From Asterionella formosa (taxonomy: Eukaryota), in contig NKIB01014383.1 of assembly GCA_002256025.1 (NCBI GenBank), positions 1 through 44,040 on the forward strand: a DNA stretch of 44,040 nt, read 5' to 3'. The notes under the pieces were generated by a model. The model had not been told where the DNA came from. It did no database searches and worked only from the letters and a program-made list of their open reading frames with translations. Position numbers and translations under genes: made by a program. This document shows, piece after piece, positions 1-44,040 of this stretch; position 1 is the first letter of the stretch, and every line of letters begins with the position of its first letter.

Positions 1-664
1 TATTATGACTATTCTATTGCTGTTCCAAGTACATCGTTGTCAGCACTCACGCATGTACCTAATCTGGTGGCTGCGCCGGTATGGTTCGTACGGCGCATGT
101 ATGGAGCATCATATGCAGATATTAACACCTGGTACCCATCCCAAGGAGTGGCATGTTTGGAAACCGAAGTTTTTTGCCCATGTACATATATGCCTTCTTC
201 GAGGGCTTTGAAGGAATACGAGTCAGTAGGTTGAGATGAAGTATCAACAGGTGAGAAGGACTTAACCAGCCGGGTGAAGATCATCCTGAGCGCGACACGA
301 AAAACCGGTAATACGAGGGGTTGCCTGTACAAGTTTGATTTTGGCATGTCGGAGTGGTCCATTTGGATACGTAAATGGTGCCAGAAGTTCAGAGTTCCCC
401 AATGGAAATGCAATGGTAGCGTGGGACAAGTTAGTGTCTAAGTATGAGTCAAGTAACATGACAAATGTGATTTCCTTATGAGATCATTGGACAAAATTCA
501 CGATGAACGAAAATGAGAACCCCGACATTTGGTCGGATCCTGATAAAAGATGCTGAAAACACGTCATCAACTACGTCACTCGTATATTTTCCACGTAGAA
601 TATAACTTCCAGGTAGAAGCACGTGAAGGAACGGAATCTTGATCAGACAATGCGAAGACAAGTG

Positions 665-830
665 TTCGGACCTGCGCCTGCCCGTCTCAATACGCATGCC
701 CGATTCTGTATATGCTGGTTCAAACAGTGGTCCTGGTACAGTGTACCGGTAGTTTCGGACCTGTTCCTGCCCGCCTCAATACACATGCCCGACGCTTTGT
801 GAGCTGGTCCAAAGTGTGGTCCCCTGGTAC
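665..830. repeat. Imperfect tandem duplication, two copies, period ~89 bp
   Basis: TTCGGACCTG.(G/T)CCTGCCCG.CTCAATAC.CATGCCCGA ... GCTGGT.CAAA..GTGGTCC..TGGTAC occurs at 665-739 and again at 754-830. Confidence 0.8.
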
Positions 831-1379
831 CTGGTACTGGGTATCGTACTTTACTCCTATCTGGTACCATGTGCAGTAAGCATCAGATATATCTCAATAA
901 CATCAATCAAGTCACGTCGATCCAGCAGATTTTACCTTCACGCATTAGATTTGATGAACGGGTACCGGTACCAGCATATACCAGTAGTGTAGAGTCTAGA
1001 ACATTACAGGAAACTCCTGTATAGGCCTCGTGCTGTACTATGTAGCCTGACACGTAGCTAAAAGTAGCTAGCACCAGATATCTGTAACATCAAACAAGTC
1101 GCTTTCATTTTCTGCAATGATATGGATGTCAAGATGAGATGCAATGGAAAGTGAGGTAATTTGCTTGAAATAAATATTTAGCTTCACTACAGACAGCATT
1201 GAGATATACAGAGGAACTAGAGGAAAACAAACAGCTTGAAATGAAGGTGACGGATTCATTGAAGACAGACATCATGATGATATCAAGTTAGTAAAGAAGG
1301 AAGGAGTAGATGTTTCTGAAGTGGTCTGCTCCATGTTGGGTCACAAGGAAGATGCGGTGGTGCAAATGCTGGGATGATA

Positions 1380-2086
1380 ATCTTCTTAACAACATAATTG
1401 CCATTGGGCAAATTAATGAACACAAAGTTGCTATTAAAGTCAGTAACAGTAGTAGTCTATAGAAAAGGGCTGGTACCACTTGGACTTTGTAGAGTAACAA
1501 TCACACTCACCAAGTTAGTGTCTTCACTATCGTTGTTGTCGGTATCTTCCTTGAAGCTTCTGGAAATTGATCCAAGCAAAAAGTATGTTGAGAGGCAGCC
1601 ACTCACACTTGGAGCACTGATGGGGTGCTGGTCACAGAAACAAATGTTCAAAACATTTCCAGCACTTGTATTTACAGAAATTGTGCTGCTGCCAACATTG
1701 AAAAATCCAGGAGGTGTCTATTTGACAATTGTGTACATGCCTGGAGAAGCATTCAAGGTGAAGTTACCATTGCAGTCAGTCATGGTTGGTATGACAACTG
1801 TACCATTGGGATCTTTCAGTTGTACAGTAATGCCACCAATCTTAACATTGCCACCGTTGTCATGATTGGTATCTTCAAGCACCTGTAAACTGATCTTACA
1901 CGAAGGCTCATCACCAATGAAATCTCCAAATTGTCTTGTTCTCACTGCCACAATGCTTGACGTCAATTTTGCTATCAAATGCCACACCCGAGCGATCTGA
2001 CACATCAACATAGCTACCCGACTGGACTGAGGGTCATCGGCGCTGTCACTGAGCAACCTCATTACGAGAAACCCTTTTGTCCTCAT
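1380..2086 (-). pseudogene. Decayed SdrD B-like (Cna-B/prealbumin-fold) repeat protein
   Basis: Two repeat units split over frames: VLEDTNHDNGGNVKIGGITVQLKDPNGTVVIPTMTDCNGNFTLNASPGMYTIVK, then GSISRSFKEDTDNNDSEDTNLVSVIVTLQSPSGT continuing after a frameshift as TTVTDFNSNFVFINLPNGNYVVK; stops and frameshifts present. Confidence 0.7.
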
Positions 2087-2712
2087 TGGGGAAAATGAGA
2101 GGATAAAACATGATCATGGTGAACAATGCAATTCGGCAGTGGTCCAGCATCAAGCATTTATTTATTTTTTATTTGAGATAACTACCAAAACCATATTATG
2201 CTGGAAATCGAGGAATGGAATGCCGGCAAGGTAATATATGAATTATTATAAATGAATATATTGTATTTTACATCACAAGAAATATCGAAAACGATCAAGT
2301 TGGGCGAGGGATAGTCTAAGATTCCTGTCAGATAGATTCCTCTTTTCCATGATGACGTGTTTTCAGCACCTTGTATCAGGACTCGTTGGGGATAATTCGA
2401 TAATGAATGTTGAGCAGTACGAGCTCCGCAATTTCGGATGGTGCCTATGTGGCCTATTTTATCAACCACTCACCGTAAGGCCATTACCGGCACTGTACAA
2501 GAGTTTGGTGATATAAAAATCTGGTCTTGCCAGCTCTGAGCTCACGATTCCAAGACGTCTAGAAGCAAGACGAACGTGTGACACTGCTATGATTTCTATG
2601 TACGGAACTATACCAAGGCCGACGAATAAGAACGGCGAGAGGCACGCCTTTTTTTGGAAGGGCCCTTACCATTTTGGTTCACAAGGCAGTTGCTGATTCC
2701 CGAAGCAAGATT

Positions 2713-2929
2713 CACAGATGTCGCGAAATCAGGGCTTTTTTGTTGACCGAAAACCCGGAAACTATTTGAATTTCATTACGATAAATCTCGTTTTGTCAAA
2801 ATGACGATGGCGATCGCCTTTTTCTTCCAAGATAATAATAATTAATTATCCCCTTTTTCGGATATGCTCAATCCTATCCCTGTTTAGAGTCTGAGCTATG
2901 GTAATGGCTGGTAGACGACTTGTGTGTAG
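2713..2929 (-). repeat. Inverted, diverged copy of the terminal repeat at 5115-5317
   Basis: Aligns to the reverse complement of 5117-5317 (e.g. CCGAAAACCCGGAAACT.TTTGAATTTCATT.CGATAAATCTCGT.TTGTCAAAATGA.GATGGC ... AATGGCTGGTA.ACGACTTGTGTGTAG) with one short indel. Confidence 0.9.
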
Positions 2930-5114
2930 CCTGTTTAGACTGGTAGGGAAATGTATAGGCAATACATAGATTAAAAATAGTATATTGGAAATAAATATTA
3001 CTTTGCTGTACTGGTACTGCTATTAGTCTAGTCTACCAGCAATGCAATTGTTTCATGATGACTCATTTGTTATTACTGGTACAAAAGTTGATTCAATCAT
3101 CAGTATGCGGGCCCTAAAGGCATCCCAGTCTATAAATACCTGGTATGGTATGGGGTACGGGTACCTGATATGAATGAACCATCATGGTTTATACTAACAT
3201 ATTGGTAAATTGTAGACTATGATACCAGCATACTCCTTCAGTCATGTTAGTTGCCAATACTTCTGTTGATAAGAATAACTCTATGCTAATGATCTCTTCC
3301 TGTTACCCAGTAATGGTATGAAGTAGGAACTGTTCCACTTGGTTCTTTCAGAAACTCTTGGATTCTTTTCTATCCACCATAGCTGCTCATCTAAAATAAA
3401 GGAAAATTTGAGTGCACAAATGTGCATGTCGATTCCCTACTCAACATTCCTAGCAAGCAACACCGCAACCAGATTCTCTGTGTGATTTGGACCTGTTACT
3501 TTCCTCTTTGCATCAATGAATTGAACCATGCCAGTGATTAGTGCAACTATAAGCCCAACAGTCTCACTTTAAATTTGAATGGAATTCTGTGGTTTTGTAA
3601 GCAACATATTGCTCTCAAACAGTTCCATATTTTCATTCTGAATATCCTCAAACTTCTCATGTCCAGAAATCAAGCATCAAATTAGCCATCTTCGCTCATG
3701 ATGAAACTCTGAATTTCATTTCTCCTGCTTAGACATTTCTTCTTTAAGTGGTAATATTGCTGGTATTGAATGTAGTCGTCTCCCTCTCTCATCCTATTTA
3801 TTGGATAATTGATTTTGTACTTGGATGCTTCATCCTTGTTGTCACTTGCATTGCCATAATTTTTAAAAACATTTTATTGCCATTGCAAGAATGACAAGAC
3901 AACACCATACATTGCACATTTACTTTCTTGTTTACCATTCTTGCAAAACAATCTTTCCCCATTTGACTGCAAATTATGCCATTTGCATATTGGACATGAA
4001 TACTGCAAATTGATTCAGCACCTGCATTCGAATCTTGGTAAACAATAGAGTGTATTGGTTCTAGATGTCGAATTCACAAGCAATTAACAATGGAAGGCAG
4101 TCATTCTATTTATCTGTATCGAAACTGTTGATTGTTGCCACGACTGTAAGAACTACATGAAGTCTTCTATGTTGACGAGTCCATTTTGAACCAAACATTC
4201 GCAACCCACTGGTAGCAAGGGATACAAAATTAAGTTCCCGTTGTGTACATAGTGCCCATCCAACAACCAATGACAAATTAAGATCCTATTTTACACATAC
4301 CGGGTAGTGCCCACCCAACAACCAATAATCAACAATACATCCAACCAGGACCTCTCCAAATGCAGTAAGTATTAATTGCTGCTCAGCACGACGATTTCTG
4401 ATGGTTGTCAATTGCTGTCTCGAAAATCGCCCCTGTCTTCTTTCCTGCTCTAGCTATATGGTGTGTTTCTGATAAAAACATGATGGATTCAACAAACTTA
4501 TGCATAAGAAGAAAATAGAGCCAATTACCCTTCAATCTTTGCAGAAGCAACCAAGCAAGCCAAGGAACCTAAAAACTCTCAAGGTGGGTACAAGCACCAA
4601 CGAAATGATCAGAATCTGATGAATGAACCAGCCGCTAGGCGAGAATCTTTCTCCAACATGTTGTCATTGTAGAACAAGTGACAATCACAAGGCAATCAAC
4701 AATACACAGCCAGCAGTCTCTCGCTTGAACAAACCTCTACCAAAGAACCAAGACATCAACAATGAAACACCAAGAGCTTGTGCTCGCTTCCACCTTGCGG
4801 CTCCTCTTGAAACGGTCAGTCGACTCTTGATTGATTGTTGCGTCACGGTCCAATATAAAAACAGAGGCCTCGTCTTACAGTGATAAGAATGGAGGCAAGC
4901 CCACTGGGTCATAGGACATATGACAAACGAATAGACTTGTCATCCATAAAAAATGAACCATCTTGAATCTAATTGACTACATAAATGATGATTCTATACC
5001 AAATCAATTTAAACGTTAAATATATTGCTTCCCCATAAATTTCCCTATTAGTTTTCTCGTGCTTTGACTCTACCAAATCGAGTCACGGCGCCAAATATAT
5101 AAAATTATGAATTT

Positions 5115-5317
5115 CACTACACACAAGTCGTTTACCAGCCATTAAGCAATGACATGATTGAGCTTATCCGACAAAGGGGATGATGAATTACTATTATCTA
5201 GGAAGAAAACAGCGGTAGCCATCTTCATTTTGACAATACGAGATTTATCGCAATGAAATTCAAACAGTTTCCGGGTTTTCGGTTAACTAAAAAATACTTG
5301 ATTTCTTGACATGTGTG
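5115..5317 (+). repeat. Putative left terminus of a CACTA-type DNA transposon
   Basis: Begins CACTACACACAAG at 5115, almost exactly where similarity to the copy at 2713-2929 starts. Confidence 0.6.
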
Positions 5318-5408
5318 TGTGTTCTATAGTACAAAAAGGAAAGTACCTCCAAGCAACAGAATAAGAGAAAGGACGTGAAAAGTTTCAAGTTCCAGCCTTT
5401 GGGTCACT

Positions 5409-7486
5409 ATGCCAATGAGTGCAACTGTCAACAAAATGCACCAATCAAACAGAAGGGAGGAGAACACGCAAATACTAGTCCTAATTACGGGTACCATCTA
5501 CCTGGCGGGCTTAAGTGCCCATCATAACAGTGTTATATTCGGCAAGAATTCTTTCAGAACTCGCATATCAATCACAAGTTCAAACCTGTATAGTGGTCCT
5601 CTTCTTGTCTCAACTCATTTCACAGGTGATTGTGGTGATTTCATGAAAAAATCGTATGTAGTGTTTCAGGTAGTCATACCAAGAGGTCGCAGCTGATGTT
5701 CACTATTGGTTCTTCTATAATTGTTTCATTCTTTGATTTTAAAGCATCAACTTCTATCTCGACTCCTATTTCGTTGTCATCATGTCAAGTAAAGGAAAAA
5801 TAAGAAGCAGTGATAAATCAAGAGTTGATAATGTCTCTCAAAAGAGGTACTGCAACAGCAACCAGGATGAAAACTTTCTGAATGAGCCTTCCTATTCCTA
5901 TCGGGCATAGCAGGCGAAGACAAATTTATGGAGTTACATCTTGATAATGGCGATGATCTCAAATATATATCACGATTCCACCTTAGTCATGAGACAGTGA
6001 TTAACAGAAGCATCATTATCCATTGTTGTTTTATGTTCAACAACTTCATAATAAGATTGACCTGTATTGGAACGCAAAATTTCGCTGAATACCTCTTCTG
6101 ATATTGGATTCAAGCTTTGCCACTACTGTCTTTACAAAAAGAAAGGATATCGTTGCATTGATATCATCCTCTCAATGTAAAAAGGAGTTGGTGAAATATT
6201 TCATACTAGAAAATTTTTCCACACCCAGGCACTAACATTCATTTACATATTTGAATCTCCTTGAATAACCTTGCTTTTGATCTCTTTACCAACCATTTTT
6301 ACTTTCATCATCTTTGTAGTCTTACAAATATACTGCTGAAACATGTGTGCCAAGTAGTATTGGGATATCTAGTCCAACCAGTCATGGCTTGCAAGATTGA
6401 GCAGTACGTTCTTGTTGCTGAAACATCATCCCAAAATCGCTATTGCCATTAAGGAAAACTCCGAATTGGCGGATTGCATCTGGAATGGTGTCGAAGAAGT
6501 TTCTCATAGAGGAACCAATTTCCTATTGGCGAGAAGTGCTAAGGAAAGGAAAGAGTACTTTGACAGTACATTTGGAGGAATGTGTGCAATTACACTATGT
6601 CACTGTTTGTAAGCGACGAAAGAAGTAACAATACAGTTCAATCAGATGAATCTGAATTTGAGGATATACTAAGGGATGCAAAGACATCCATTGTTGTGAA
6701 ACCCAAACTAATGTCTTTCTCGGCAGAGAAAGACCAATGTGTATTTTGATTTATTTTCCGGCGGTATTAAACAACTGTGTACACAAGCACAAGCAAAACG
6801 CTCAGATGGGACAGGAGATACTGCCGCTTGTTTCACCTAGACAACGAACATGGTAAACCTGCGGTTAAGACCTTTGTAAATTTTGCCATCCAGCGATGCA
6901 ATGACAGAAATTCTACTGGAATTAGTACGTCTGTAGAGATAGATCGGCTCAATTTCTATTATCATGCATGTTACTATGGTCTCAAAAGATGACAGTACGA
7001 GAAAAATTTTAAGATATAATCCAAATGGAACAAAGAGGAAATGATTCTTCATCAAACCAGTTCTTGGTTTGATTGTTGGGTTGAAGTGAATTGGGAAAGT
7101 CGAAATGGGAAAAACTGCACTGTACCAGCAAAATTACTATTATGGGGTAACGTTATGTATTCAGATGGAACTGAAAGAACACTCCTTGAATCTGTATGTT
7201 TGTTGAGGAGTACCAAGAACATGCCAACCATAATCGCATGTTTTATATCACAGGTGATTACATTTGTGATGAGAAGACGGGATTAAGCGTTGTTGAGCAT
7301 AACAAAATTCTTTCCACAGCATTTGAAGTCCCAGCTTTAGCACCAGCTACAATCAGTAAATCTACGAGTACACAAGAAACCGTTGAAGCCATTGAAAACA
7401 CTGATTATTATATTGCGTTACCACCACGAAATCAAAGGAAATTGATTGGTTGGGATATTCACTTAAGTACAGAGAAACAGCACTAA
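5409..7486 (+). pseudogene. Fragmented transposase-like ORF (Plavaka/CACTA-like C-terminal region)
   Basis: Chain of short + strand ORFs; the segments ILRYNPN...WFDCWVEVNW...VPAKLLLWG...ILSTAFEVP...YYIALPPRNQ resemble, from memory, Plavaka-type C-termini; no catalytic triad readable. Confidence 0.4.
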
Positions 7487-7599
7487 TTATCATGTTTACA
7501 ATTAATTAAGAATATACTTCAACATTTATTACCTGGTTACGAATTCATAGTTTACTTACTATCTTTATGATCTTTCTTTTCTTTCGAGAACCAGAAGAT

Positions 7600-9048
7600 G
7601 AAAATGAACTGTTAGCATCCACTGATTCTTCCGCAGATTTCAAGAATCTCTAGAAATCTCTTAATAGTATATCATGCTGGCTGTCATTCAGAAGGACAGT
7701 ATAATTGCTCACTTTCTGTATGTCCTCAGCAATAACCAAAGCACGTTTGTAGTCATTTTCAAATTTTCTAAATTTTTTTCTTTATTACCGTGCCAATGGT
7801 AAGATTCTACGGGATGATGAACCATCTTACTAAAATAAGTCACTACCGTTCTGTTCACTTCAGAGATAACTCAAATTAGGATTGAGGTCCATTGCTGCAA
7901 CTTTTTCACAACAAGCGCTCACGATGGTTTTTGGAACATATATCATAACTGCATCTTTAATTACAGACTTTCTATGAACAGGAAATGACCATCCGTTTTG
8001 ATTTCCACCATTAAACTTCATTTTCATATATGCATTCCAACCATCCTTTGTTAAACATGAGTCAGTTCTTTTCCCCATAATCTTTGTCACTCCCCCACTG
8101 TAGCGAAGTTGTGGTAGTAATTCCATAAACTGCACAATTGTAAAGGCGGGACTACATGACTATCCACCATCCTTGGTTGGTTCGAAAATCTTTGAATCTG
8201 TAGGTTTGCCCATAAAGCATTCCAGAGGGCCTTTCCCTCGGCGGCATCCACTAGTAGTCACCAGCTACCTTTCCCTTCACTCAACTTTCCCCTGAATAGA
8301 AACAGAACGGCTGTTGGAGATGGTTTGCTTATTCAGATGAAAATGCTTACCATCACGAAATAGTCCTGAAGTTTTGTAGATTGGAAGGGAATGATTTGTT
8401 AGTAAACAAGGAGTATGTTTGACAAGTCAAGAAGAAATCAGGCATACCAAGTCAAGTTGTTAACTTACTAGTAAAGGCATGTTTGAGAGTGGTAACAACC
8501 GCATTTCTTTTTTCTGACATCACTTTATTTATATGATTCTTATATGTCTGCCAAATTGATTCGAATTCCTTATCAGATCCCATGAATAGGCTTGGGAAGT
8601 GAGCACTAAATGAAAGTGCCATACTAGTTGGTCCCCTTTCATCAAGGTCAATATCACCTGTAATAAACTTGATTATTGGAAAAAGTTCAAATTTGAACCA
8701 TTGACCAACATTTCGGGTCCAACGCTTGTCTCTTCCAATGCCATGGCCACCAGAAGGCAAAGTTGAAGTCTTTGCTTCTCTGTTACTTCGCGAAGCTCTT
8801 CAATCTCCTTTCTACTTTTCTTCAACTCAGATTGAAGAAACTCTAAGGGGGCAAATTCTTTGTTATCAGATATAGTCGAAATGTTTTTTTTTACGATCAG
8901 TTGATAAAATGAGAATTTCATCCTCATCACTAAGGAAATCGCTGTTCTCTGCTCCAGGAATAGAGACTCCATTGTCACTTTCACTGTCAGATGCAAAGGA
9001 AGCCTCAGTCTGAGAGAGCTCCGGAATATGTTTTGACATGATTTCCAA
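7600..9048 (-). pseudogene. Decayed accessory ORF convergent with the transposase-like region
   Basis: Acidic Ser-rich N-terminus, coiled coil (LKKSRKEIEELRE), KFELFPIIKFI...WQTYKNHINKVMSEKRNAVVTTLKHAF, a GTAAGT donor at 8468, and further pieces in 7860-8135; frameshifted. Confidence 0.45.
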
Positions 9049-9598
9049 GATAGCTTGCCAGAGATTTATAAGAATTGGATCTCAAACAATCACTGATTGA
9101 TCACACATTTATTAAAAAAAGTGGACATTTTCCCTTTGGTTGATATTGAAAAGAATGGCCGTTGTTGGTAGTCTACCGGTTAGTTGCTCCACTAATAATA
9201 ATCAAGCATCATCACCTTCAAAATTCTACAGTTACTGAATGGCGCGACCGTAAAAGTTCTAGTCCTTCTAGTAGTACTTGCTACTACTAGCTAGCAGTGA
9301 TTCAGGGAAATCATACACACAAACAAGTACCAGGTATTGTATATAGTACATCGGAGTATTCGTCTTGTACTGTTTATCTAGGTGCTAGATGCAGGTAGGA
9401 TTCGTACAAAAAAATATTGCAACTAATACTGCTGGCTTCCTGCCCATTTGCCGGAACAGTAAAACTGCCAGCCGTCCTCACGTGACTCCATATTTCTCTA
9501 CTAATCGCTCTTTTTTGCAACAATTGCGTTACTCTCCTATTCTCTCCTTCCTTTCTCCCTTCGAGACTTCTTTCTCGCTCAAGAACAGACCAGCCAAG

Positions 9599-9973
9599 AT
9601 GTCCGATGGTTTCTGTCCTTTCGAGGAACACAGGGCTCAGTATGGTGATGATGATGATACTATGTATCCTCATTACCATATCAAGACGAACTTCAGTGTT
9701 CCTTTCACAGCTGACCAGTTTAGGAGTACTTGCGTCAGCATGGACAAGTTACTTGAGATTGGGATGTTCAAGGATTTCAAGAGAGATCCTGAATTTTCCA
9801 TGAAGAAACTCTATCTTCGATTGATCATTGTGTATGAGAATGAGTCCTTTCTCCCTCAACGCTATTGGTTGGTCCCCTTAAGTCCTGCTGAGTCCATGAG
9901 TCTGATCTGCCAGGGATACAGGACTCATGTGGATTATCCACTGCTCTTTTTTCTTCCTCTTTTCTATTGTTGA
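9599..9973 (+). CDS. Hypothetical protein (~124 aa), possibly transposon-derived
   Basis: Open frame from ATG 9599 (MSDGFCPFEEH...) with protein-like composition; no family recognised. Confidence 0.25.
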   Translation: MSDGFCPFEEHRAQYGDDDDTMYPHYHIKTNFSVPFTADQFRSTCVSMDKLLEIGMFKDFKRDPEFSMKKLYLRLIIVYENESFLPQRYWLVPLSPAESMSLICQGYRTHVDYPLLFFLPLFYC

Positions 9974-10721
9974 ATGGCTTAAAGTATGTCTATAGTAAGC
10001 TATCAAATGACCTTATCAAGATTCCATAGAAATATGAACCACAACAAATAGTGTGTACATGAAAGTCACTACAAAACTGATGTAGAGGAATTTGTTGAAT
10101 CTTGAAATGTTGTTCCCTCTCCGAGAATACTGTCGCTCGGGTTTCTCATCTTTTTCTACAAAACATAGGAAATCTTATCTAGTCAAAGTTATCAAGCTAA
10201 TCATCGCGGCCTCAAAACTGTCGCTCCTTCGGTCAGATCTTCAAAACTGAGCAAATGACGACCAAAACAACTTTCAACGCCGATTTTAACTTTTTGTTGT
10301 CAATACTAGTGCAAAACATTTTATTATTGAACGATAATCTCGTCTATGTTAGTCTACATACACCTGCGAAATAGGAATTGTTCATTGTCAATATTCGTGA
10401 AGATATTCAAACCCATAATTTCGTCATGGTCAACATGGAGTTGCTGTCTCATCAACCCCATACCACAGGCAACAAGCTGTACAAACACACATGCAAGTAC
10501 TGCCTGATGGTATCTGGTACCCCATGCCAAGCATATTTAATATACATCACTATATAAATATGTTGTGGTACCAGCAGTTGGAATTAACATGTAATCCTGT
10601 AGGTCTGTCATTACTACTCAGCAGTCAAAGTCCACATCATACATCATATCGGTATTATATTTGGAATTGTCGTGTGTATCCATGAATTACTTTTTGTCAA
10701 AAGTCGCTCCACAAATACGAA

Positions 10722-12188
10722 ATGTCTAGTTCTTCCAACTCATCTCACAATTCATCCTCCTCTGAGGAGGATGATAGCATCTTGCAGAGTTCAGGAGATA
10801 GTTTGTCAGATGATAGTGCTTCCTCTTCTGGGAGAAAAGGGGTAGATCCCATTAACTTTTCCATCCTGCCATTGTCACCTGCAGGCGACACTCCAGCACG
10901 TACTGACAATTTTCCTCTTCCCCATGGCGACACTCCTTGGTGCTGGGAACCGGACTCACCAGACTTTATCATACAGACAATGACTGATTATAATTTAGCT
11001 TGTCGCAAGGCTGTCAAGAAGATTTGGCCAAATGCCGAATTTACATTTGGTATGTGCTCTTATCATGCCTGGAATGCATGGGAAAAGAAGCATAGAGGAA
11101 AGTTCAAGAAATACGACAAAAACAAGAAGAGAATGGGTGAAGACTTCGAGGCGTATTAAAGAAGTCCCTGGATACAGCTAGTTCCAATCCTCCGCGATTT
11201 GATGATTTTCAAGTGGATCAACACATACAAGGAAAAGAAAGTTGCAACTGCATGGTTAGAACAATGGGGTCCCACCATTCACACCTTAATTGAATTGAAC
11301 AGTTCCAATCTACTTCGTGGTGGTTTGCCTGCACACAACAACAATTCAGGGGGCATCAACAGTGGCTGGTGATAAATCATTCTTTGACCACAGGAAGCCT
11401 TTAAGGGCTAACTTCATTCATAACATATCTTATATGTTAGAGGATCATTCTAAAGGGGATCTATCATTTTGCTCCACTTTACACTCATCGGTACACTCGA
11501 TAAATTTCTACAAGTCTATTTATAAGCTTCTTGAGAAAAGCCAAAATGGGGGAAGCTACATTTCTCACAGTGACATTTGATCTCAAGTGTGATTCAATAA
11601 GAATCGGAGAGGGTTCATTTTTTATTGCGACATCGTCATTTGTGGACCTAAATATTATGTCCTCTATGCAAACAATGCAGTCCCAGAATACTGCAACTGC
11701 ATTGTCACAGCACAGTCAACTATCCCAATCTCGAAAGAGATATCTTTGTATCGGGAACACAGAATCAGTTACTGCACTACTAACTGTTATGCAATTGAAA
11801 AAGAAGAACAAAATGCATAATGAATACAAGCGCCTTCTCCGAAATCCTGAACAGTATTCTGCTAACCACACATTTGATGATGTCCTTTCCCTCACCCGCA
11901 GGTTTCACCTTATTGAACCTATTGTTTCCAAGAGTGAAAACGATGCATGATGTTGCTCTAACTTACTTTTTAGAAATTTTGGGAGCGTGTGGATTGGGTC
12001 CCATTTCGACTAATAGCTTGAAAGCAATGGGCAATGAAGGCCTCATATCTTGCCATTGTCACGCGTATTTAGCAAACGCGTGGTGTAAACATGCATGTGC
12101 TTTTGCATTTGACCGTGGAATTATTTCTACCTTTCCAAAGACAATGCATCCAAAGCCTAGTAGTATTAAGAATAAAGGTTCTGGATGA
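10722..12188 (+). pseudogene. MULE (Mutator-like) transposase with SWIM zinc finger, inactivated
   Basis: MULE motif TMTDYNLACRKAVKKIWPNAEFTFGMCSYH; in-frame stop at 11157-11159; GGLPAHNNNSGGIN with Gly where the NNxxE catalytic Glu is expected; SWIM ISCHCHAYLANAWCKHACA; several frameshifts. Confidence 0.85.
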
Positions 12189-12368
12189 ATCAGAAATGCG
12201 AAATGTGGAGGTAACTTAGATATTAGAGGATGATAAATTTAGAAAAGCACTAGTAGTAGTGCTGATTATAAAAGTTATCAATACTAGATAGGAATATCAT
12301 ACTTTTAACAAATAATTATTAAATATGAATTTACCATCCTTTTCCATAAGAATCAAGCAAAAATGAAA

Positions 12369-13687
12369 CTAGAGATGGAGGGATACGTTTCTTTCCATAG
12401 GCCTTTGTGTTAGTGGCATTCCCAGCTCGTTTCCTGATCGCAACTGAGTTTTTTTGGGAGTGGAACCAGCAGGGGACAAGTACATATGAAGTCTCAAAGC
12501 TCCATTGGTGAGGTGATTGTCCATAGCACCTGCATGAAAAGTATCACCCCGCATTAAAAATATGTACTTGAAAGGAATGCGAAGTAATATCGCATGTTGA
12601 TTCTCTGCTGCTTTACCTTTTCGATCTAAGTCAAAGTTCCAGTCGAATGACTCTCCATCCCAGACATTTATGGAGAACCAACCAGAACCGAGGGACATAT
12701 CCAATCCCCAAGGAAGGCACATGTCAACATCATTAATTACCAGCTCTGTATGCTGGTAGTCAAAATGTGGCTCTTGACAAACCGTTGACAAATTGACATT
12801 AGTGTGCAATAATGTACAGGTAGCTATGTGGCATACCTTTGCTGACATTGGTTGCGTTACCTGCTACAAATGGGGGCTGCGTAACAGAACCGGGAATGAC
12901 CATTGACAGAATTTTCCAAAAGTGGTTCGCATTGTCATGTGATGTGGGGTCCGAGATCTTCATTTTGTCAGTGAATGGGCCATAGGCAACCAACGACATT
13001 GCCCTGCCTGTCATCTGCCTTAAGTATTTGGCAAGGATCCTCTTTGTCCGGAAAGAAGCCCTGATAAGCGACCAAGTCGCCTGATCTGTACCGACTTGAC
13101 CCATAATCTGCTGTTGGCCGATGTCCAGGAAAGGACAGTTTTTGGTCGCAAAAAAGGTGTCTGGCAGAAAGGACAAGTTTAACACAAATACCTTATCAGG
13201 TGGTACATTAGAAATCTGGAGCATTGTATCATCTTCCATGATATAAGACACAGCTTTCATGGCTTCAGCAATTTTTTCAAGAAAGAAGCGGAGATCATCA
13301 ATGCGGCGATATTTGAATGAGGGCCAGGAATCGTCTTTGAAGAACTTCATAGCCGCTTCACGTTTGCAAGGTGTAATGACAAGTACCTGCCATCCACCTT
13401 CTTTCCGCCCTGTTTTTGATAACTGATAACGACCTGATTTTCTCCACTCTTTCCAACATGATGGGAAGTAGTTTATCCACATCCAACGCCACATTCTTGT
13501 TGGCTCTGAGGTGACCTTGTAGGAAAAAGCGAAGTAACTTATGGTCTGAGTTCTCCTTATTTTTATCTAGCAACACTCCAAGTTTCCACTTCATGACAAA
13601 CCAATTGGCGTTTTCACGAAGTGGGACTGGAACAATTGAGATGTCTTTCCCAAGTCGGGTGGCAGTTAAGCTTTTCGAGACGACCAT
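12369..13687 (-). pseudogene. Frameshifted gene ending in a 2OG-Fe(II) dioxygenase-like (DSBH) domain
   Basis: Three overlapping - strand ORFs (13687-13358, 13494-12799, 12848-12369) join into one protein of ~440 aa; C-terminal QEPHFD ... LRIPFKYIFLMRGDTFHAG ... RLHMYL gives an HxD...H...R pattern. Confidence 0.65.
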
Positions 13688-14722
13688 TGTCGGTTTTTGG
13701 TAAAAAATGTTGTATGTAGTTGAGCAGCTACATGGAATACCACATCACTATTTCTGGCGGTTCTGCACAGCTGGCCACACTGGTATACACGATTCAATAA
13801 GCAATTGCATTTACACAGCAATTGCGACATAAAACAATAGTAAAATTTTTAATATGGCCACAAATAGTCATTACAAGGAACACACATACTATCGGTATAC
13901 CCTGGTACCAGGGGTACCAGTAACCAACATCAGATGTATCGATATCATCGGTTGTCCGACGAAAAATGGACGATGTGACTACATGAATGCCTGGAGAAGA
14001 GAAGCAATCCAACAATCAACCGCATCCGTTAGGCAAAGAATCGCTACTGGCGTCATTGCGGAACTGATTTCGCTTCAAACCGGTCATGATGGACGACGAT
14101 TGGCATGGTGAAAGGTGAATTGCCGGAGTCCACTTTTCAGGAGACGAACGAAAACGAGGTGAATTCTAGATGTAAATTATTGAAATCTGTATAATATGTA
14201 AAATTGTTTCCTTAAGTAGACCCCTTGCCAATTTCGGCAATCCCAGGGCTGGAAAACCGAGGGGCAATTGGCGTCTGTTGTCTTTCCAAAATGCGAACAT
14301 ATGAAATATACAATATATATTTTAATGATGGGCAATATTGGACCTTTTGCAATTTTCGAGGTGAAGATAGGAAATATACGAAATATATTTTATATGATGG
14401 GTAAGCGAATGACGTGACGATAGCTAGAGCGGGAATTGTCTCAACAATACCCTTCTCGGCGGCTACTTGCCTTCTCGTACACATGTGTTCTCAAATGGGA
14501 TGGCACTTCTAGGGTGACCTTCTCGCAGCGCCGGGGGCGCCACTCGTACGGTCAGCCTACTCGCGCCACCCAGCCTCGAACACATGTATACTCGCAGGGA
14601 ATCGGGCGTGTATTGCCTTCAGCATGACGTTCGATTTGATGAAGCACCATCGTCGTCGTCTTCACTTTACACCTTGATCATGCATCACAATGACGTTGCG
14701 TACTTCCGTTATTTCGACATGC

Positions 14723-18024: not shown

Positions 18025-18497
18025 GCTATGATACAAGTCTTTGGAAGCAGAATCGTGAAGTCGAGCTCCAACATTCACAAAAATGGGAGGCTCTGCGGAG
18101 TTCGAGTTTCTGCTTCAGTTGTGTATAGAACTGGTGAACCGGGGTACCCTGGTACCTGGTACCAGGAACCAGTACCTGGTACTAATACTGCGGCATCATT
18201 GCTTATCATATATCTGATAATTGGAAGAGCTCGCGCTTCTCAAATGTAAGGATTCGCCGACGTGAAATTCCATCATTGTGTGTCGTTGGTTACTTTAGAA
18301 TACCTGGGCCGTCAATGGACTTCACACCATTTCTCTCCTCCCGCTTCCCACAATTAAGCAAACAGAATTTGGCTTCATTTCAAACACTAAAGTCCCGACA
18401 AACGATCGAAAATAGCAAATGAAAATCAAACGAAGAAAGATTTCAAGATAGCCTTCGGCTACTTTATACATTCTCCGACAATTTCTAAAGCACTCAC

Positions 18498-24403: not shown

Positions 24404-26262
24404 TCAGTACCGCCAGAACAAAATCACAGCGCCATACATCATTACTGACAAGATACAAGATGAACCCAAGGTCAGTGCCATGTATATGTAGGCTCTTTGT
24501 TGCTTTCGCCGATTCCTCAAAAAGCCATCGACTTCGCATACCAAGACACTCACAGTCGTGAACGAACTGATGAAGCCCACTTTGAATGCTCGTAGAAAGG
24601 CAGTCCGCCAAATGCCATTCTTATTCGTCATGTATTCGGACGCAATCAAAGCTATTGAGATGACGCTTCCCAAGACATTGACTGCCATAGTACCGACTGG
24701 CAGCCATGCCCACTTCCCTTTCAATGTACCGTTGAAACCAGAAATATACCACCGAATTAGGGCACCAGGAGGTGCGAACAATGTGGCATACATCATGGTG
24801 CGATAAGTGATGGCAAAGGGACTGACGCTTTGCATGACAAAGAAGACAGACGACAGCAGGACGCAACAGACTACCAAGAGAATGCAAGTTGAATACTCAG
24901 GTGTGAACAAGACATGATCGTCTTTGTGTTTGTCCTGTTTTACAGGTGCCATACCCTTGCACCATTTCTCCAGAGCATCCACGTCCCAGTTCAGCTTTCT
25001 CGCCTTAGCACCTGCCCGATGAGGGGCGAACACTCGACGCTCGACCAACATGGCGGTTTCCATTTCGATTAGAAGCTCGAGTTGGGGGTGTTTCACTCGT
25101 CTACTCTCTATCGTCGAATCTCTCCATCGGTACAGAAACAGTAAGCGATCCGAATCAAGAGAGTCAGCTCCCATGTCCATCACTAATCCGGGCAAAAATC
25201 GCCGCTCAAACTCTGGCAAACTTCTGTTGATGTACACACCGATTTCCTTTCGATCCAAAATCGCATCCATTTCCAAAGCATTCAACGGATTCCTCCACCG
25301 ATGAATCCAGATTGCAACTTTCTTTCCAAGAATATAAGATCCCAAGGCGGTTTCCATTCCAATGAAGTAACCAAACATGGCCCGCGTGACGTTGCTGGAA
25401 TGGGTCACACCGGTTCCATAGATTATGATCACCATTTGAGAGTTCCAACTGGAATATGTTGTGATGGAGCTACAGATTCCAGTTCGAATGACTAGGTGGA
25501 GAGTATCCCAATGTTGAAAGAAGGAATCCGATGCCGCCCACGCGATGGCAGCGTCTACTGGCAAGCCCAGGGTCGTCGTGGTTTGCATCATGCCCATGAT
25601 GAAGGATCCTAACATGTTTGCTGGCAATTCCTTTCAAAATAGCCAGGATTATCGGTGATTGGAATGTGAGCACTAGACTGTCCTGTTGCAATGAGATACA
25701 TTTTTCAACGTGTCCAACTCGGACTTACCGCAAAAACAATTCCATCTTGCTGATCTGTTTCTCCGCCTGCTTTGACGCAAAGGGGGGAGCCAGATGCCAA
25801 CCAACCCAACGTACCAGGGTCTTCACAATCATCTCCAAACGACTGCGCTATAAGGATTCTGATTAAACTAGCAAAGATCGCGGCGATGGACATCCATATG
25901 CATGTGACAATAACAGACAATTGCTCTGTTGTCATGCTTCCAAAGTATTCTGACGATGAGAAAAAAGTAAGAGAGGCATGTTCAGCGCAGGTCTGACAGC
26001 TCGATGTATTTACTAGTGCTCAGCAAAATAGGTCGTTAGTTATACACTCACCTGTCTTTGGCGTATTTTTGCATTGCTCCACCTCGTCATCACTCATGGA
26101 AGAGCTGCTTCCGATGGATTCATCCCAGGTGGATGCACTAAACGATTCGTATACCTTAGTTGCATCATGAGGTAGTATAGGGTCAAGACGCGGTCCTATC
26201 TTCACACTCGTTTCCGAGATGATCGCGATTCTAGGAGCGGAATTGATTGTTGACTTTCGCAT
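24404..26262 (-). CDS. FEX: FEX/CrcB-like fluoride exporter, two Fluc domains, divergent paralog, 3 exons
   Basis: Exons 26262-26052, 25949-25729, 25630-24404 in frame; LPANMLGSFIMG, GICSSITTYSSW, PGALIRW, GTMAVNVLGS, GFISSFTTVSV. Confidence 0.85.
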
Positions 26263-27055: not shown

Positions 27056-28900
27056 CTAATGGCGACCTGATCCATACACTACTGCAGTATACATGAGCAC
27101 CGACAAAATGCAAGACAAACTCAAAGACAATCCCATATACACATATGCTCTGTCTTGCATCCTTGGATTCTTCATTAATTCATTGATTTCCGATACAAAG
27201 GTACTCACGGTCGTCAATGATCCAGTAAAACCAATTTTGATCGCTCGCATGGAAGCAATTGGCCAAAATCCACTGGTGTAAGTGATATATTCGGCTGAAA
27301 TCAAGGCGATTGACAACATACTTCCTACCACATTGGCAGTCATGGTACCGGCCGGTAGCCACGCCCAGTTTCCTGGCAGTGCGCCGTTAAAGCCAGTGAG
27401 ATACCACCGAAGTAGGGCACCAGGAGGCGCTAACAGTGTTGCGTACACCATCGTACGGTAGGTGATGGCGTAAGTTGTTGCACTTTGAATTGCAAATAGG
27501 GCCGTCAGGAGACCAAGGAATAATAGAAACAGAATTAACGCCGAAAGCTCCGGAGTAAACAGGACAGAATCATTTTGATTCTGGTCTCCTGGTGGAGGCG
27601 CCATTCCTTTGCTCCATTGTTCCAGGGCATCCACATCCCAGTTCAAAGTGCGTGCTGTGGCCCCTGCTCTATGAGGGGCTGCCGGGCGTCGATCGATCAA
27701 AATGGCAGTTTCGATTTCGATCAGCATGTTGAGTCGAGGGTGCTTGACCCTTCTGGCCTGCACAGTGCTCTCCCTCCATCGTTCCAAAAGCTGCAAACGC
27801 TCCACATCTTCCATCTCGGCCCCCATATTGTCCATATTTAAATTGGGCAAAAATCGGCGCTCAAATTCTGGCAAATTTCTGTTAATGTATACGCCTTCTT
27901 CCTTCCGATCGAAGATTGCATCCATTTCCTTTCCGTTCAAAGGATTTCTCCAACGATGAATCCACAACGCGAACTTCTTTCCGAGCACATAGGAACCCAA
28001 TGCCGTCTCCATTCCAATAATGTAACCAAACAAGGCACGAATGACACTGCTGGAATGTGAAACGCCCGTTCCAAACATAATAATAACCATTTCGGAATTC
28101 CAACTGGAATAGGTGGTGAGTGAACCACAGAATCCAGATCGGATGGCCAAATGGAAAATGTCCCAATACTGGAACGAGGAGTCCGGTGCAGCCCATGCAA
28201 TGGAAGCATCTATTGGCAAGCCCAGGGCGGGAGCTGGTTGCATCATGCCCATGATGAAGGATCCCAACAAGTTGGCTGGTAAATCCTGAATAGCAGTGAG
28301 TTATAGATCAAGATTTTAGGAAAAGAAAGATACGAGTGTGAGAACCAAAAGCACGCCCCAGAAGACCTGTCGCCCCCGTCCTTTTACCAAAATTCGAACG
28401 TACCGCGAACACAATACCACCCTGCACGTCCGCATTTCCACCAGCGGTGACACAGAGAGGAGACCCAGCTGCCAACCACCCGACAGTTCCAGGATTAGCG
28501 CATTCTTCTCCAAAGAGCTGTGCGAGTACAATTCGAAAGAAGCAACCAACCATGGCCGCAACAGACAACCACACGCAAGTGACAATCCACTTGAGAGTCT
28601 CTGGTGTCATTTTTCCAAAGTAGTCTGACCACGACACGGAGGACACATAACGAGTTAGTAGTGAAAGCGCTGGGGACCTGACTTGTTGATCCGAACTAAT
28701 TCCCATACAAAGTGCTCACCGGTCCTGGGCAAATTCTTGGACTGCGCAATTTCCGGCGACAATCCACGCTCCATCTCCTCTTCATCCCTAGTTTCACCCC
28801 AAGTGGATGCAGTAAATGATTGATATGGAATCTCCGCTTCGTCTTCTGGATGCGGGGAAAGACCATCATCGTCCAAGGGGGCCGTGTTGGATTCCGTCAT
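27056..28900 (-). CDS. FEX: FEX/CrcB-like fluoride exporter, two Fluc domains, 3 exons
   Basis: Exons 28900-28720, 28624-28404, 28285-27056 in frame; DLPANLLGSFIMG, GFCGSLTTYSSW, PGALLRW, GTMTANVVGS, GFTGSLTTVSTF. Confidence 0.92.
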
Positions 28901-33334: not shown

Positions 33335-33625
33335 ACCCGGTATCGGGATACCTGGTACCTGGTAACAGGTACCGGTATTCAACTTGGTGTTAATGTAGAC
33401 AAAAATCATATACCGGTACCGGTAGTACCGGTAGATACATTCATGCGTAAATGTTTACCGTATCGTAGCCGACCTGTATACAGAAATTCATATATAGAGC
33501 GGAATATATACCTAATTGATAGAACCACACTACCGGTACCATGTACTGTAGTATAGTACCTAGTTCCTGGTACCGGTACTACTTCTGGTGCAGGTACCAG
33601 GTACCTGCTACCAGGTACCGGTAGC
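33335..33625. repeat. Cluster of palindromic GGTACC/ACCGGT/CCWGG words in a divergent intergenic region
   Basis: e.g. GATACCTGGTACCTGGTAACAGGTACCGGTA, TACCGGTACCGGTAGTACCGGTA, GCAGGTACCAGGTACCTGC. Confidence 0.8.
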
Positions 33626-37902: not shown

Positions 37903-38685
37903 GGTGGGTTTTGGTAAAACGCTTGCGAAAATACGGGCCAACAATGGAACAAGGGAGGGCCAAAGGCGATGTGGCTGGCCAGGAAACGATGTTACGATAG
38001 GCACAACATGAGCAAAATGCGAAGCAATTTTTTTATATACTGTATGTAAGCAATATGCGTTTATTCATATACATGTACCGCTACCTGTATATGGTTTAGA
38101 ATGTGTTTCGTAAAAATCTCTTTGTACATAGATGATGCTACTACGGTATTACCAGTACTGACTTTTTACTCGGAGTTGAAGGAAGGCATTCTTGCAAGCA
38201 ACTTCTTAAATGTACGCACTGTGAGTACGGTACTACGTAGTTGATTCTTGTTCACTTGGAGGGTTCATGCCAGAAATCCTAGAGTACACTACCAGTACCG
38301 TGACATATATATAATAATAGCTTTAGCTAATATCCCATGGTTGCCGGTATTACCAGGGTGGGAGTACCTGATAGTAACAGGTACAGACCAGTTACCAAGT
38401 ACCGGTTACAAGGATGTGTGGTGGTCACCAAACGAATGAGAAGGATTCTTTCGTTGCGATCGCTCCGCCCGCCCATGCGGCACCATCACACAGATTCTTG
38501 GTTGTTTGTGAGATACTATTGTTCTGATGATGACTGAATGGTGTGCGTAAGAAGCACGCCCTGCTTTTTGCCATCTTCATCCATCATCCTTGAATATCCA
38601 TGGATTCGTATGAGTCAACTCCTATCCCGGCACGACTTCTTGTCTGCCTGCCTGTCGCCGTGTTTCCATGCACTAGCGGGTACCA

Positions 38686-38875
38686 GCAAGTTGCGGTCAT
38701 TTTGCTGAAATAAACATTTTAATCTTGGATAAAGATAGCTAAATCTTTATTTTCAGCAAAATTACCGTAAATTGCAGGTACCAAAGCAAGTTGCGGTAAT
38801 TTTGCTTAAACTAACAATTTAATATGGGATAAAGATAGCTAAACTTTTAGTTTCAGCAAAATTACCGCAACTTGC
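38686..38875. repeat. Two tandem 90-bp hairpin (MITE-like) units, period 100 bp
   Basis: Units 38686-38775 and 38786-38875 each have ~25-bp terminal inverted arms, consensus GCAAGTTGCGGTAATTTTGCTGAAA ... TTTCAGCAAAATTACCGCAACTTGC, around a shared core GGATAAAGATAGCTAAA. Confidence 0.92.
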
Positions 38876-39220
38876 ACAGGTACACTGGTACCAGGTACCC
38901 TCAGGTCGCAAGCACATACGGTACGGTACCTGGTACCAGGTAGTATGTTGTCTCATACTGGTACATCAATCAAGACTTCCAGGGTCCTCAGCCAAACAAA
39001 CAACAAATGCACATTTGCTGGAGTGGCTCCTTCCTCATTGATGATCATTTTGTATACCGGTAATTCTTCCTCGCTCATCCATCAGTTGACTTCAGAATTA
39101 TACTTACGGCGGAAGACTAGCTCATAGACCCTACCGGTAATAAGGGGGCCACCCAAAGTCTTGTGTGTGTGTTTATATCTTACCAAAAATAGCAAGACTA
39201 CCGGTATTCAATTAACCGTA

Positions 39221-40904: not shown

Positions 40905-41082
40905 GGTTCCTGGTATCAAGGAGTCTACCGGTATAGACCGGTTTGCTTGGTGTGCTGCATACCGGTACCAGGGGTACCTTGGTACCTGGTAGTGTACAGC
41001 ACTTGATGTACCGGTACCGGTACAGGTTTTACCAGGTGCGTATGAGTACCTGGTGCTAGGGGTACCTAGTACACGGTACGCA
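40905..41082. repeat. GGTACC/CCWGG/ACCGGT palindrome cluster between divergent M50B and tubulin genes
   Basis: TACCGGTACCAGGGGTACCTTGGTACCTGGTA, GTACCGGTACCGGTAC, CTAGGGGTACCTAG. Confidence 0.8.
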
Positions 41083-43165: not shown

Positions 43166-44040
43166 ACAAGAAAGTAGTTCAATTATGCAAGCAGCCAATC
43201 TCAAGCTGGGAAGTGGCGCATATTTTTTCAAGTACTGTGTCATGATATGATCAAACAATTGGATAAGTGTTGATATTATGGGTAAAACAATGCGTTGATG
43301 TTTTTCTAGCTGTTTGTAGCAGAGCATGGTCGTATTCCTTTAATTTGCAATTTCTTTTTGAAAGCAGGCAATTTTGACACAAGAATGGGATGTGCGCATG
43401 TGCTGCTTGTACTTACCACCTATTAGCCATCATAGACTGTTCCCATTGCACTGGTAACATGGTGCTGGTACCAGGTACCCTAACATTGCAACCATAACTT
43501 GGTTGCACAGTATACCCTGCCGTCATGTATAGCTACTAAATGCAACTATTTTGGCCCAGAGGGAGTACCTGATACCGGTGTTAGTATTTGTAATGCATAC
43601 ATCACTAAGCAGCTATAGGCCAAATCTAGAACATACTGCTACAAACAGATGAACAAATATATCACTAAATACTTGATAAAGACCAAATCTAGTAACCAGG
43701 TACGTTATATATGAGTGAGTCCACCCTAACGAATGGAGTAGATGAGGTTATACAGTTGTTCGTATAAAACGTCGTTTTCCTGACAAGCAAGCAAAGAATT
43801 GTCATGGGTAATTAAGGGACGAATACTATGCTAGACGAGATTACCAATACTGGTACATAGTCTAATATGTATCTAATTAACAGCTTACAGCAACTGGATA
43901 TGTCAGGCGCCTAGACTATATCGAAGCATATCAATACTAGGCATATACCGGTATATGGGATAAGACTATTAGATGCCTCGATAACAGGAATCGATCCTCC
44001 CTATACCATATTGTCAAGTTGAATGATGGTGATGAACCTG

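Follow-up and report, generated by a model that had tools for sequence, protein, structure and literature searches.

The 44,040-nucleotide (nt) stretch of contig NKIB01014383.1 from Asterionella formosa, referred to here at its full length as the window, contains at positions 10,722–13,687 two decayed genes that converge tail to tail. The gene on the + strand, which resembles Mutator-like element (MULE) transposases, has its ATG at 10722 and its TGA at 12186–12188; the gene on the − strand, which resembles 2-oxoglutarate (2OG)-Fe(II) oxygenases, begins with an ATG at 13687–13685 and ends with a stop codon, placed by homology, at 12333–12331. An earlier interpretation of the letters alone (the sequence-only reading) had the two genes converging within about 200 bp, and the distance from stop to stop is 142 bp; its start and end coordinates are exact. 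It had also described both genes as decayed and picked out the string HFD...RGDTFHAG...RLH in the − strand gene, and both observations are borne out: frameshifting indels are present in the − strand gene, an in-frame TAA and frame changes in the + strand gene, and the motifs are found as PHFDY (12770–12756), GDTFHAG (12548–12528) and ALRLH (12500–12486). Judged from sequence, neither gene is a chance open reading frame (ORF).

The − strand gene is spread over three overlapping frames that together correspond to a protein of about 457 amino acids (aa), with an N-terminal part of ~270 aa that is predicted to be helical and a C-terminal part of ~190 aa that is predicted to be β-rich and oxygenase-like. 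Out of 1.84 billion representative proteins, the middle of the gene retrieves 25 at E ≤ 1e-3; almost all of these are short fragments, and a search for longer related proteins gave none. The C-terminal part retrieves 14 proteins at E ≤ 0.01 (best 8e-77). No relatives of the family were found in the viral-contig and genome-contig collections searched, and tblastn of the C-terminal domain gave one match at E=5 in plasmids and none in phages. A scan of metagenome contigs for the gene yielded three loci (L001, L002 and L003) out of 235 pattern matches. L001, a marine metagenome contig of 8552 bp, holds the only intact relative found, a 457-aa ORF at 3817–5190 with 70% DNA identity to 13689–12306 of the window. 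L002 shares 93% identity with the window copy but has a largely different set of frameshifts, one of which is held in common with the window, whilst L003 is 99% identical to L001 but has lost its start codon and carries a 20-nt deletion at the H-x-D site. To judge from these matches, the oxygenase-like family is real, rare and multi-copy.

Relative to L001, the window copy has 1-nt deletions at ~13413, ~13396 and ~12453 and a 4-nt insertion at ~12826. At the sites of two of these deletions, other copies in sequencing runs X1 and X15 carry one extra base (at 13393 and 13412). Four related proteins (P0005, P0026, P0028 and P0013) have MPHTCTLLH uninterrupted across the insertion site, and the interruption is therefore a 4-nt insertion in the window copy and not an intron. 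Introns in the − strand gene, which a 64-nt GT..AG interval at 12790–12853 would have fitted, are ruled out by the same four proteins, which read through, and no RNA contig has a joint at this interval. The ratio of nonsynonymous to synonymous substitution (dN/dS), taken for the window copy relative to L001, amounts to 0.32 across 434 codons, with 0.19 over the 174 C-terminal codons and 0.39 over the 260 N-terminal codons; between the window and L002, two recent pseudogene copies, it is 0.52. These ratios indicate that purifying selection has acted on the family and that the C-terminal domain is its most constrained part.

The intact copy adjoins a transposase gene. In L001 a long ORF at 412–3432 (~967 aa from the first Met) matches the Pfam Plavaka transposase family PF18759 (E=1.2e-10; 41.6 bits against a curated cut-off of 26.3; residues 247–540), lies on the same strand as the oxygenase-like gene and ends 384 bp upstream of its ATG. 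No MULE-like gene was found in L001 by tblastn, which gives no support to the view of the sequence-only reading that a MULE family may be the carrier of the dioxygenase; its more general idea, that the − strand gene is an accessory gene of a transposon, holds in that the family is multi-copy, has been under purifying selection and sits among transposon genes. Downstream of the oxygenase-like gene in L001 there are two further ORFs on the same strand, 6055–7199 (ORF3) and 7275–8060, which match no Pfam or NCBIfam model and may be additional accessory genes of the element. A remnant of ORF3 lies in the window (Table 1), and the order of oxygenase-like gene followed by ORF3, on the same strand, is kept in both sequences; compared with L001, the window has ~2.4 kb extra between the two, and it is there that the MULE-like gene sits. 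The kept gene order and the extra segment containing the MULE-like gene fit either a MULE-like gene inside a Plavaka-type element or a composite derivative.

The case for an oxygenase begins with the candidate catalytic residues (Table 1), which are invariant among the five aligned homologs, as is an Arg 14 residues past the distal His. In 2OG-Fe(II) oxygenases a basic residue 10–17 positions past the distal His binds the C5 carboxylate of 2OG. The distal-His motif reads GDT[VF]HAG across the homologs, and P0024, the most distant relative, has H-R-D at the H-x-D site. The His of H-x-D and the distal His stand 77 residues apart in the window copy, 87 apart in L001 and 77–116 apart in PhyH members having both residues (9/13 bacterial members), a weak criterion. 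ESM Atlas queries with the 164-aa frame of the window and with the intact C-terminal 190 aa of L001, which are homologous to each other and therefore not independent, returned named clusters that all belong to the cupin/double-stranded β-helix (DSBH) class: PhyH (0.90; 16 hits belong to this set), 2OG-FeII_Oxy_3, HalD and WelO5, over a range of 0.87–0.90. Among the fold methods, it is protein-language-model features only that suggest this resemblance to PhyH-like and other 2OG-Fe(II) oxygenases.

A number of results count against an oxygenase. The Atlas scores of 0.87–0.90 fall in the range that the tool calls "leads", and in its calibration scores up to 0.90 are reached by 4–10 of 100 shuffled proteins. 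The intact L001 protein has no Pfam match at E ≤ 1, including PhyH (PF05721) and TET/JBP (PF12851), and none of ten family members matches any DSBH family, these two included, at E ≤ 10; there is no match in the PDB by sequence or by profile, an N-terminal profile having retrieved no chain at E ≤ 10, and an NCBIfam search gave no meaningful match. Two AlphaFold runs returned no confident fold: the whole protein, with a predicted local distance difference test (pLDDT) score of 32.4, is modelled at low confidence as helical over its first ~270 residues and β-rich beyond, and the C-terminal 190 aa, with a pLDDT of 36.7, as all-β. Foldseek with the C-terminal model found nothing at E ≤ 0.001 (best E=0.41), an outcome that is meaningless because the pLDDT values are only 32.4 and 36.7. 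For hhalign, two PhyH profiles were assembled from bacterial genomes, a first one of 13 members and a second of 40; against the former the family gives P=0.26, equal to an unrelated control, and against the latter P=0.029 and a probability of 1.7%, with the catalytic motifs not paired, although the score of 20.1 against the 40-member profile exceeds those of all 20 column-shuffled controls (maximum 16.0).

Since Pfam, PDB profiles, hhalign and both AlphaFold runs gave no support, the DSBH dioxygenase fold is graded as no more than plausible, and a 2OG-Fe(II) oxygenase is the best guess for the − strand protein, at slightly better than an even chance. The dioxygenase-like cargo of the sequence-only reading is supported in part, as regards its association with transposons, its H-x-D...H...R residues and its language-model likeness, and falls short as regards a DSBH fold by profile or structure. 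Its suggested link to TET/JBP finds no backing: searches of family members against the Pfam profile gave no Tet_JBP match, the named Atlas neighbours include no such family, and nothing ties the gene to TET/JBP in particular. The competing view is that the family is associated with transposons but is not an oxygenase, its H-x-D...H...R being another kind of metal site or none and its role, for example, DNA binding or that of a nuclease. That no profile or structure method backs the DSBH fold, and that shuffled proteins reach comparable Atlas scores, speaks for this view; it has to be set against four invariant residues in the most constrained domain of the protein, named Atlas neighbours that every one belong to a single clan, a motif spacing that agrees with the PhyH members measured, and published 2OG oxygenases beside Plavaka transposases. 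A protein of this other kind is regarded as fairly unlikely.

The + strand gene belongs to a different family. A database search with it returned three proteins, P0039, P0040 and P0041 (best 1.9e-87), with tblastn identities of 94% (399 aa), 58–63% (522 aa, apparently complete) and 41–52% (411 aa) respectively. All three begin with Met-Ser followed by an acidic or Ser-rich region, and carry IIQTMTD...C.YHAWN some 100–125 residues in and GGLPAHNNN[SA]EG.N further on. These blocks resemble three features of MULE transposases (second Asp, C..H and Glu motif), and a C-terminal CxCx8CxH, present in P0040, resembles a SWIM finger. The region expected to carry the first Asp of a MULE domain is absent or has collapsed, the acidic region starting ~125 aa before the TD motif, and the Pfam MULE model (PF10551) matches below threshold (E=0.23, with 12.4 bits where 27.6 are required; profile positions 68–96 of 99). 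None of the three homologs matches any Pfam or NCBIfam model at E ≤ 1, and neither they nor the window gene has a Pfam SWIM match. The window copy departs from P0039/P0040 in frame near 11366, 11530–11550 and 11950, and has lost the candidate catalytic Glu, since HNNNSGG carries Gly at that site. From its alignments, the gene is best described as a decayed copy belonging to a conserved, MULE-like family, which probably descends from a MULE/SWIM transposase. The sequence-only reading had called it a MULE-SWIM transposase pseudogene, of which the pseudogene of a conserved family is retained, whereas the MULE label lies below the Pfam threshold and the SWIM motif was read by eye only. Since the first catalytic part is lacking, the family is unlikely to be active as the transposase that moves the pair.

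Table 1. Coordinates of the features described in the window
Feature	Position	Strand	Basis or detail
Remnant of ORF3 (L001:6055-6669, within 6055-7199)	8464..8742	-	tblastn 57% over 93 aa, E=2.4e-31
Left arm of the sole inverted pair enclosing both genes	10504..10523	+	19 nt, 84% complementary to 13911-13929, E=0.43
Pseudogene of ~520-aa MULE-like / SWIM-like family	10722..12188	+	tblastn with P0039-P0041 in several frames; alignment
IIQTMTD...CSYHAWN	10968..11075	+	Resembles second-Asp and C..H part of MULE domain; conserved in P0039-P0041
In-frame TAA; Lys in homologs	11157..11159	+	Comparison with P0039/P0040
HNNNSGG; homologs HNNN[SA]EG	11334..11354	+	Alignment; Gly for candidate catalytic Glu
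CHCHAYLANAWCKH, CxCx8CxH SWIM-like motif	12051..12092	+	Read by eye; conserved in P0040
Spacer between stop codons	12189..12330		142 bp, AT-rich, short palindromes present
Pseudogene of ~457-aa transposon-associated protein	12331..13687	-	70% nt identity to intact L001:3817-5190 over 1432 nt
GDTFHAG...ALRLH, candidate distal His and 2OG-binding Arg	12486..12548	-	H163, R177 invariant in 5/5 homologs
PHFDY, candidate H-x-D metal ligands	12756..12770	-	H86, F87, D88 invariant in 5/5 aligned homologs
4-nt insertion, frame shift between ...GMPH and TCTLLH...	12823..12830	-	~12826 vs L001
Two 1-nt deletions, frame shifted	13394..13417	-	~13413 and ~13396, vs L001
Right arm of the inverted pair	13911..13933	-	Contains pattern site at 13933

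The stretch is present in 20 of 24 listed public sequencing runs, which come from 12 studies and are mostly freshwater metagenomes. In the DNA run X1, in which contig depth is not equal to copy number, 12,663 contig pieces lie on 10400–14100 at ≥90% identity, 3233 of them at ≥99%, 4857 at 95–99% and 4573 at 90–95%, and cover both genes and the spacer; the presence of pieces in all identity classes points to many diverged copies. RNA contigs of runs X18, X15 and X19, among which is a polyA library prepared from the X1 sample, overlap parts of both genes, but expression is not claimed, since neither the strand nor the level nor the absence of a transcript can be read from contigs and some may stem from carried-over DNA. 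A segment just beyond the − strand gene, 13996–14100 and especially 14061–14097, stands out by a summed X1 contig depth of 1.87 million, compared with ~0.03–0.2 million over the two genes; its depth is high in each of the three RNA runs as well, 14061 and 14097 are frequent contig breakpoints, and the segment has no match to an Rfam family.

The sequence-only reading had named as a check whether both ORFs lie inside shared terminal inverted repeats (TIRs) with target-site duplications (TSDs) of 9–11 bp, and such an arrangement is not supported. No significant inverted repeat was found between 9800–10750 and 13650–14700 (best E=0.43) or between 8700–10760 and 12150–12345, and neither a MULE-type long TIR with a 9–11 bp TSD nor Plavaka termini (TGT..ACA or CATCA..TGATG) with a 2–3 bp TSD were found around the pair. 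The best inverted pair, 10504–10523 / 13911–13933, was rejected as a TIR: its E value of 0.43, from a 1-kb by 1-kb comparison, is not significant, it has no TSD, and it rests on the common hexamer GGTACC. The pattern CTGATG-N(1-12)-GGTACC occurs three times in the window, at 10504(+), 13933(−) and 886(−), where 0.05 are expected, and once in L001, at 405(+), 124 bp before the Met of the Plavaka protein; it was likewise rejected as a terminus, having been defined post hoc, resting on the same common hexamer, having a polarity opposite to that of CATCA..TGATG and having no flanking TSD.

GGTACC itself occurs 43 times in the 44-kb window, compared with ~11 expected from length alone. It is often tightly clustered, for example as GGTACCTGGTACCAGG, in intergenic DNA upstream of genes, and sites or clusters lie at 18143–18163, 33354–33619, 38679–38937, 40964–41066 and 43467–43479, and also at 10516, 10567, 13904 and 13913. 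Its presence upstream of several L001 genes as well suggests a general intergenic or promoter motif, and GGTACC may be a promoter or spacer motif particular to this lineage, or else a trace left by a family of miniature inverted-repeat transposable elements (MITEs).

The wider window is eukaryotic, and a Pfam scan of its ORFs finds ordinary genes from 14.7 kb onward (a methyltransferase, two CrcB-type genes, U-box, DHFR, MFS, GPR1/FUN34, an M50B peptidase and β-tubulin) and no ORF with a significant match over ~2.5–14.6 kb. The pair lies in a gene-poor, repeat-rich region that ordinary host genes adjoin. Within this region, an inverted repeat of ~218 nt (2713–2929 / 5117–5317, 79% identity) flanks a 2.6-kb segment without recognisable genes, which could be a non-autonomous DNA transposon. 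Among the host genes, the CrcB-like pair are tandem paralogs on the − strand (24404–25633 and 27056–28300), and in either of them two stretches resemble CrcB (Pfam CRCB, E=9e-20 and 3.5e-25), the same layout as that of eukaryotic fluoride exporters.

Several further observations concern the relatives of the − strand gene. In L003 a stop-free, unrelated frame of 183 codons (157–706) leads in frame into the oxygenase-like gene, the ATG of which is changed to ACG, an arrangement that may represent a gene fusion or a chimeric assembly. Three protein clusters (P0005, P0037 and P0038) depart from the family after EPHFDYQH and continue with one common unrelated sequence, which is also found at L003 1–150; it appears that another repeat was inserted into the H-x-D region of one copy, which later spread. 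In L001, the oxygenase-like gene is closely followed by two direct repeats of ~95 nt (5294–5384 and 5437–5527, 81%), and the end of the contig (8456–8552) is a second copy of the last 59 nt of the gene and 36 nt of its 3' flank, at 94%. The ORF3 remnant of the window has a sub-threshold match to the HU-CCDC81 DNA-binding domain (E=0.032).

Taken overall, the best explanation, for which the chances are judged about evenly balanced, is that the pair consists of dead genes of a Plavaka-borne oxygenase-like family and of a separate MULE-like family, and that their juxtaposition is secondary. The Plavaka part of this explanation is open to several objections: the link is known from a single contig, L001; the homology of L003 to L001, at 98% over the gene, begins 22 bp before the start codon, the DNA upstream being unrelated; a tblastn search of the window for a Plavaka remnant gave nothing better than E=0.64; L002 does not extend far enough to show neighbouring genes; and termini or a TSD are defined for none of the copies. 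The MULE-like gene may instead be the true partner of the oxygenase-like gene, and in the model of the sequence-only reading the oxygenase-like gene would be cargo belonging to an element of the MULE family, with both genes inside one pair of terminal repeats and moving together. The closeness of the two tail-to-tail genes and their similar decay would suit such an element, as would the X1 coverage, which is of a similar order across both genes and as deep over the spacer, and a polyA-RNA contig of X18 that covers MULE-like sequence and the adjoining 28 nt of the spacer; these two observations hint that the spacer, and perhaps the whole pair, is copied as a unit, neither expression nor linkage being proved by them. 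The inverted pair at 10504–10523 / 13911–13933 encloses exactly the two genes, and homologs of Plavaka accessory genes are reported in Mutator elements of Chondrus crispus in the accessible part of the red-algal study (bioRxiv 10.1101/2025.02.11.637652). The same inverted pair, with its E of 0.43, its GGTACC basis and its missing TSD, tells against the cargo arrangement in turn, as do a MULE-like family that lacks the first-Asp part and any Pfam match above threshold, and an intact oxygenase-like gene in L001 with no MULE-like gene beside it. A MULE element with its own oxygenase is accordingly thought improbable.

Still more remote is the idea that both are ordinary host genes or their pseudogenes, neighbours by chance with no mobile element involved. 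It could appeal to the absence of termini and TSDs from every copy, but it must contend with the diverged contig pieces that cover the stretch by the thousand in a single DNA run, the independent decayed copies L002 and L003 and many fragmentary proteins, the Plavaka transposase adjoining the intact copy, and the second partial copy inside L001; it is considered very improbable.

Transposon-borne oxygenases of this kind have precedents, and the proposal of the sequence-only reading that the locus represents an undescribed system is not supported on comparison with the literature: in the parts of the two sources consulted, transposon-borne 2OG oxygenases, including those of red-algal Plavaka and Mutator elements, are already published (PMC12730594; bioRxiv 10.1101/2025.02.11.637652). 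As far as the available text of Kojima 2025 (PMC12730594) goes, TET/JBP dioxygenase genes lie inside 11 lineages of fungal DNA transposons; the carriers include Kyakuja, Dileera, Zisupton, Plavaka, EnSpm, hAT, Harbinger, IS3EU and Helitron. The Plavaka elements described there end in TGT..ACA or CATCA..TGATG (PlavakaB: CATCA..TGATG) and have TSDs of 2–3 bp (PMC12730594). From that portion of the account, the fungal genes resemble the present one in being of the Fe/2OG-oxygenase type, in lying beside a transposase, Plavaka included, with a proposed role in escape from silencing, and in being able to move between transposon lineages. They differ in that the − strand family has no Pfam Tet_JBP match and its named Atlas neighbours are PhyH, HalD and 2OG-FeII_Oxy_3, in that the host here is an alga and not a fungus, and in that PlavakaB ends and 2–3 bp TSDs are not found.

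The closest known system is PAG3, one of the three accessory genes carried by red-algal Plavaka elements in the portion of the Bostrychia moritziana genome preprint available (bioRxiv 10.1101/2025.02.11.637652). According to that portion, PAG3 has no InterPro domain, the best HHpred match of its 2OG-oxygenase domain is 2OPW_A, and the ParB-like signal of its N-terminal part is a weak one, at an HHpred E of 0.29; the Plavaka accessory genes are reported to have homologs not only in the Mutator elements already mentioned but also in Zisupton and in Fanzor-bearing elements (bioRxiv 10.1101/2025.02.11.637652). The likeness, which is one by description as far as this text extends, would consist in the same kind of partner, a faint oxygenase signal and promiscuity: both are Plavaka accessory genes without an InterPro or Pfam domain and with a non-catalytic N-terminal part, the Atlas leads here also include PhyH, and relatives of PAG3 occur in other transposon types, Mutator elements included. 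On the side of difference, the N-terminal part of the present family shows no ParB-like signal in Pfam or in a PDB profile search at E ≤ 10, L001 has no companion recognisable by Pfam as PAG1 or PAG2 (DNA methylase and SET), and the tandem arrays of inverted repeats described in the consulted text are not seen, L001 having just two direct repeats of ~95 nt.

VANC of plant VANDAL (MuDR-type) transposons is a sequence-specific DNA-binding protein and not an oxygenase. The parallel with it lies in the idea of a Mutator-type element that bears its own anti-silencing factor, and it is limited in that the MULE-like gene here has no full transposase domain and is linked to the oxygenase-like gene only by adjacency in the window. 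A Mutator-type element with its own anti-silencing factor (VANC) is also mentioned in the accessible parts of both sources (PMC12730594; bioRxiv 10.1101/2025.02.11.637652). MULE/SWIM transposases as a class (PF10551, PF04434) share with the + strand family the TD...C..H, NNN[SA]EG.N and C-terminal CxCx8CxH blocks, whereas this family is ~520 aa long and has an acidic N-terminus where the first-Asp part belongs. Searches of the full-text literature on Plavaka, dioxygenase and transposon found only Kojima 2025, and on diatom Mutator-like transposase and dioxygenase found none; by title, the literature on transposon-borne 2OG oxygenases held nothing relevant beyond the Bostrychia preprint and Helitron papers.

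The locus itself is dead and has no present function. Under the explanation favoured here, that of a Plavaka-borne family beside a separate MULE-like one, the two genes in the window are copies of transposon-associated genes. The C-terminal domain of the − strand family would most likely bind Fe(II) through H-x-D...H and 2OG through the Arg, making the protein a 2OG-dependent oxygenase nearest in character to PhyH-type enzymes. Its intact gene, to judge from one locus, rides directly downstream of a Plavaka (CACTA/EnSpm-related) DDE transposase, and the protein may act in trans on the DNA of the element, on chromatin or on a protein in a way that favours the element. The MULE-like gene would represent a separate conserved family, derived from a MULE/SWIM transposase and not the mover of the pair. 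The juxtaposition could have come about when the MULE-like gene was inserted into a Plavaka-type element, in the interval that separates the oxygenase-like gene from the gene that follows it, or when a composite derivative without a transposase arose and was later copied.

A bolder proposal, regarded as rather doubtful, is that these sequences represent a new family of transposon-borne, PhyH-like Fe(II)/2OG oxygenases with an N-terminal targeting domain of ~270 aa, present in planktonic algae outside the red algae and hopping between Plavaka-type and MULE-derived elements. The enzymes would help these elements to stay active by modifying their DNA or chromatin or else a silencing factor, and the truncated MULE/SWIM protein would be a DNA-targeting partner and not a transposase.

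Transposons that carry enzymes which edit their own epigenetic state are rare, and they illustrate how elements escape silencing. If the − strand family is a working 2OG oxygenase, it would be a third, sequence-distinct case beside the fungal TET/JBP genes and red-algal PAG3 (the latter compared by description), and would come from another algal group; if this is true, L001 supplies an intact, intron-free gene of 457 aa that is suited to expression and assay.

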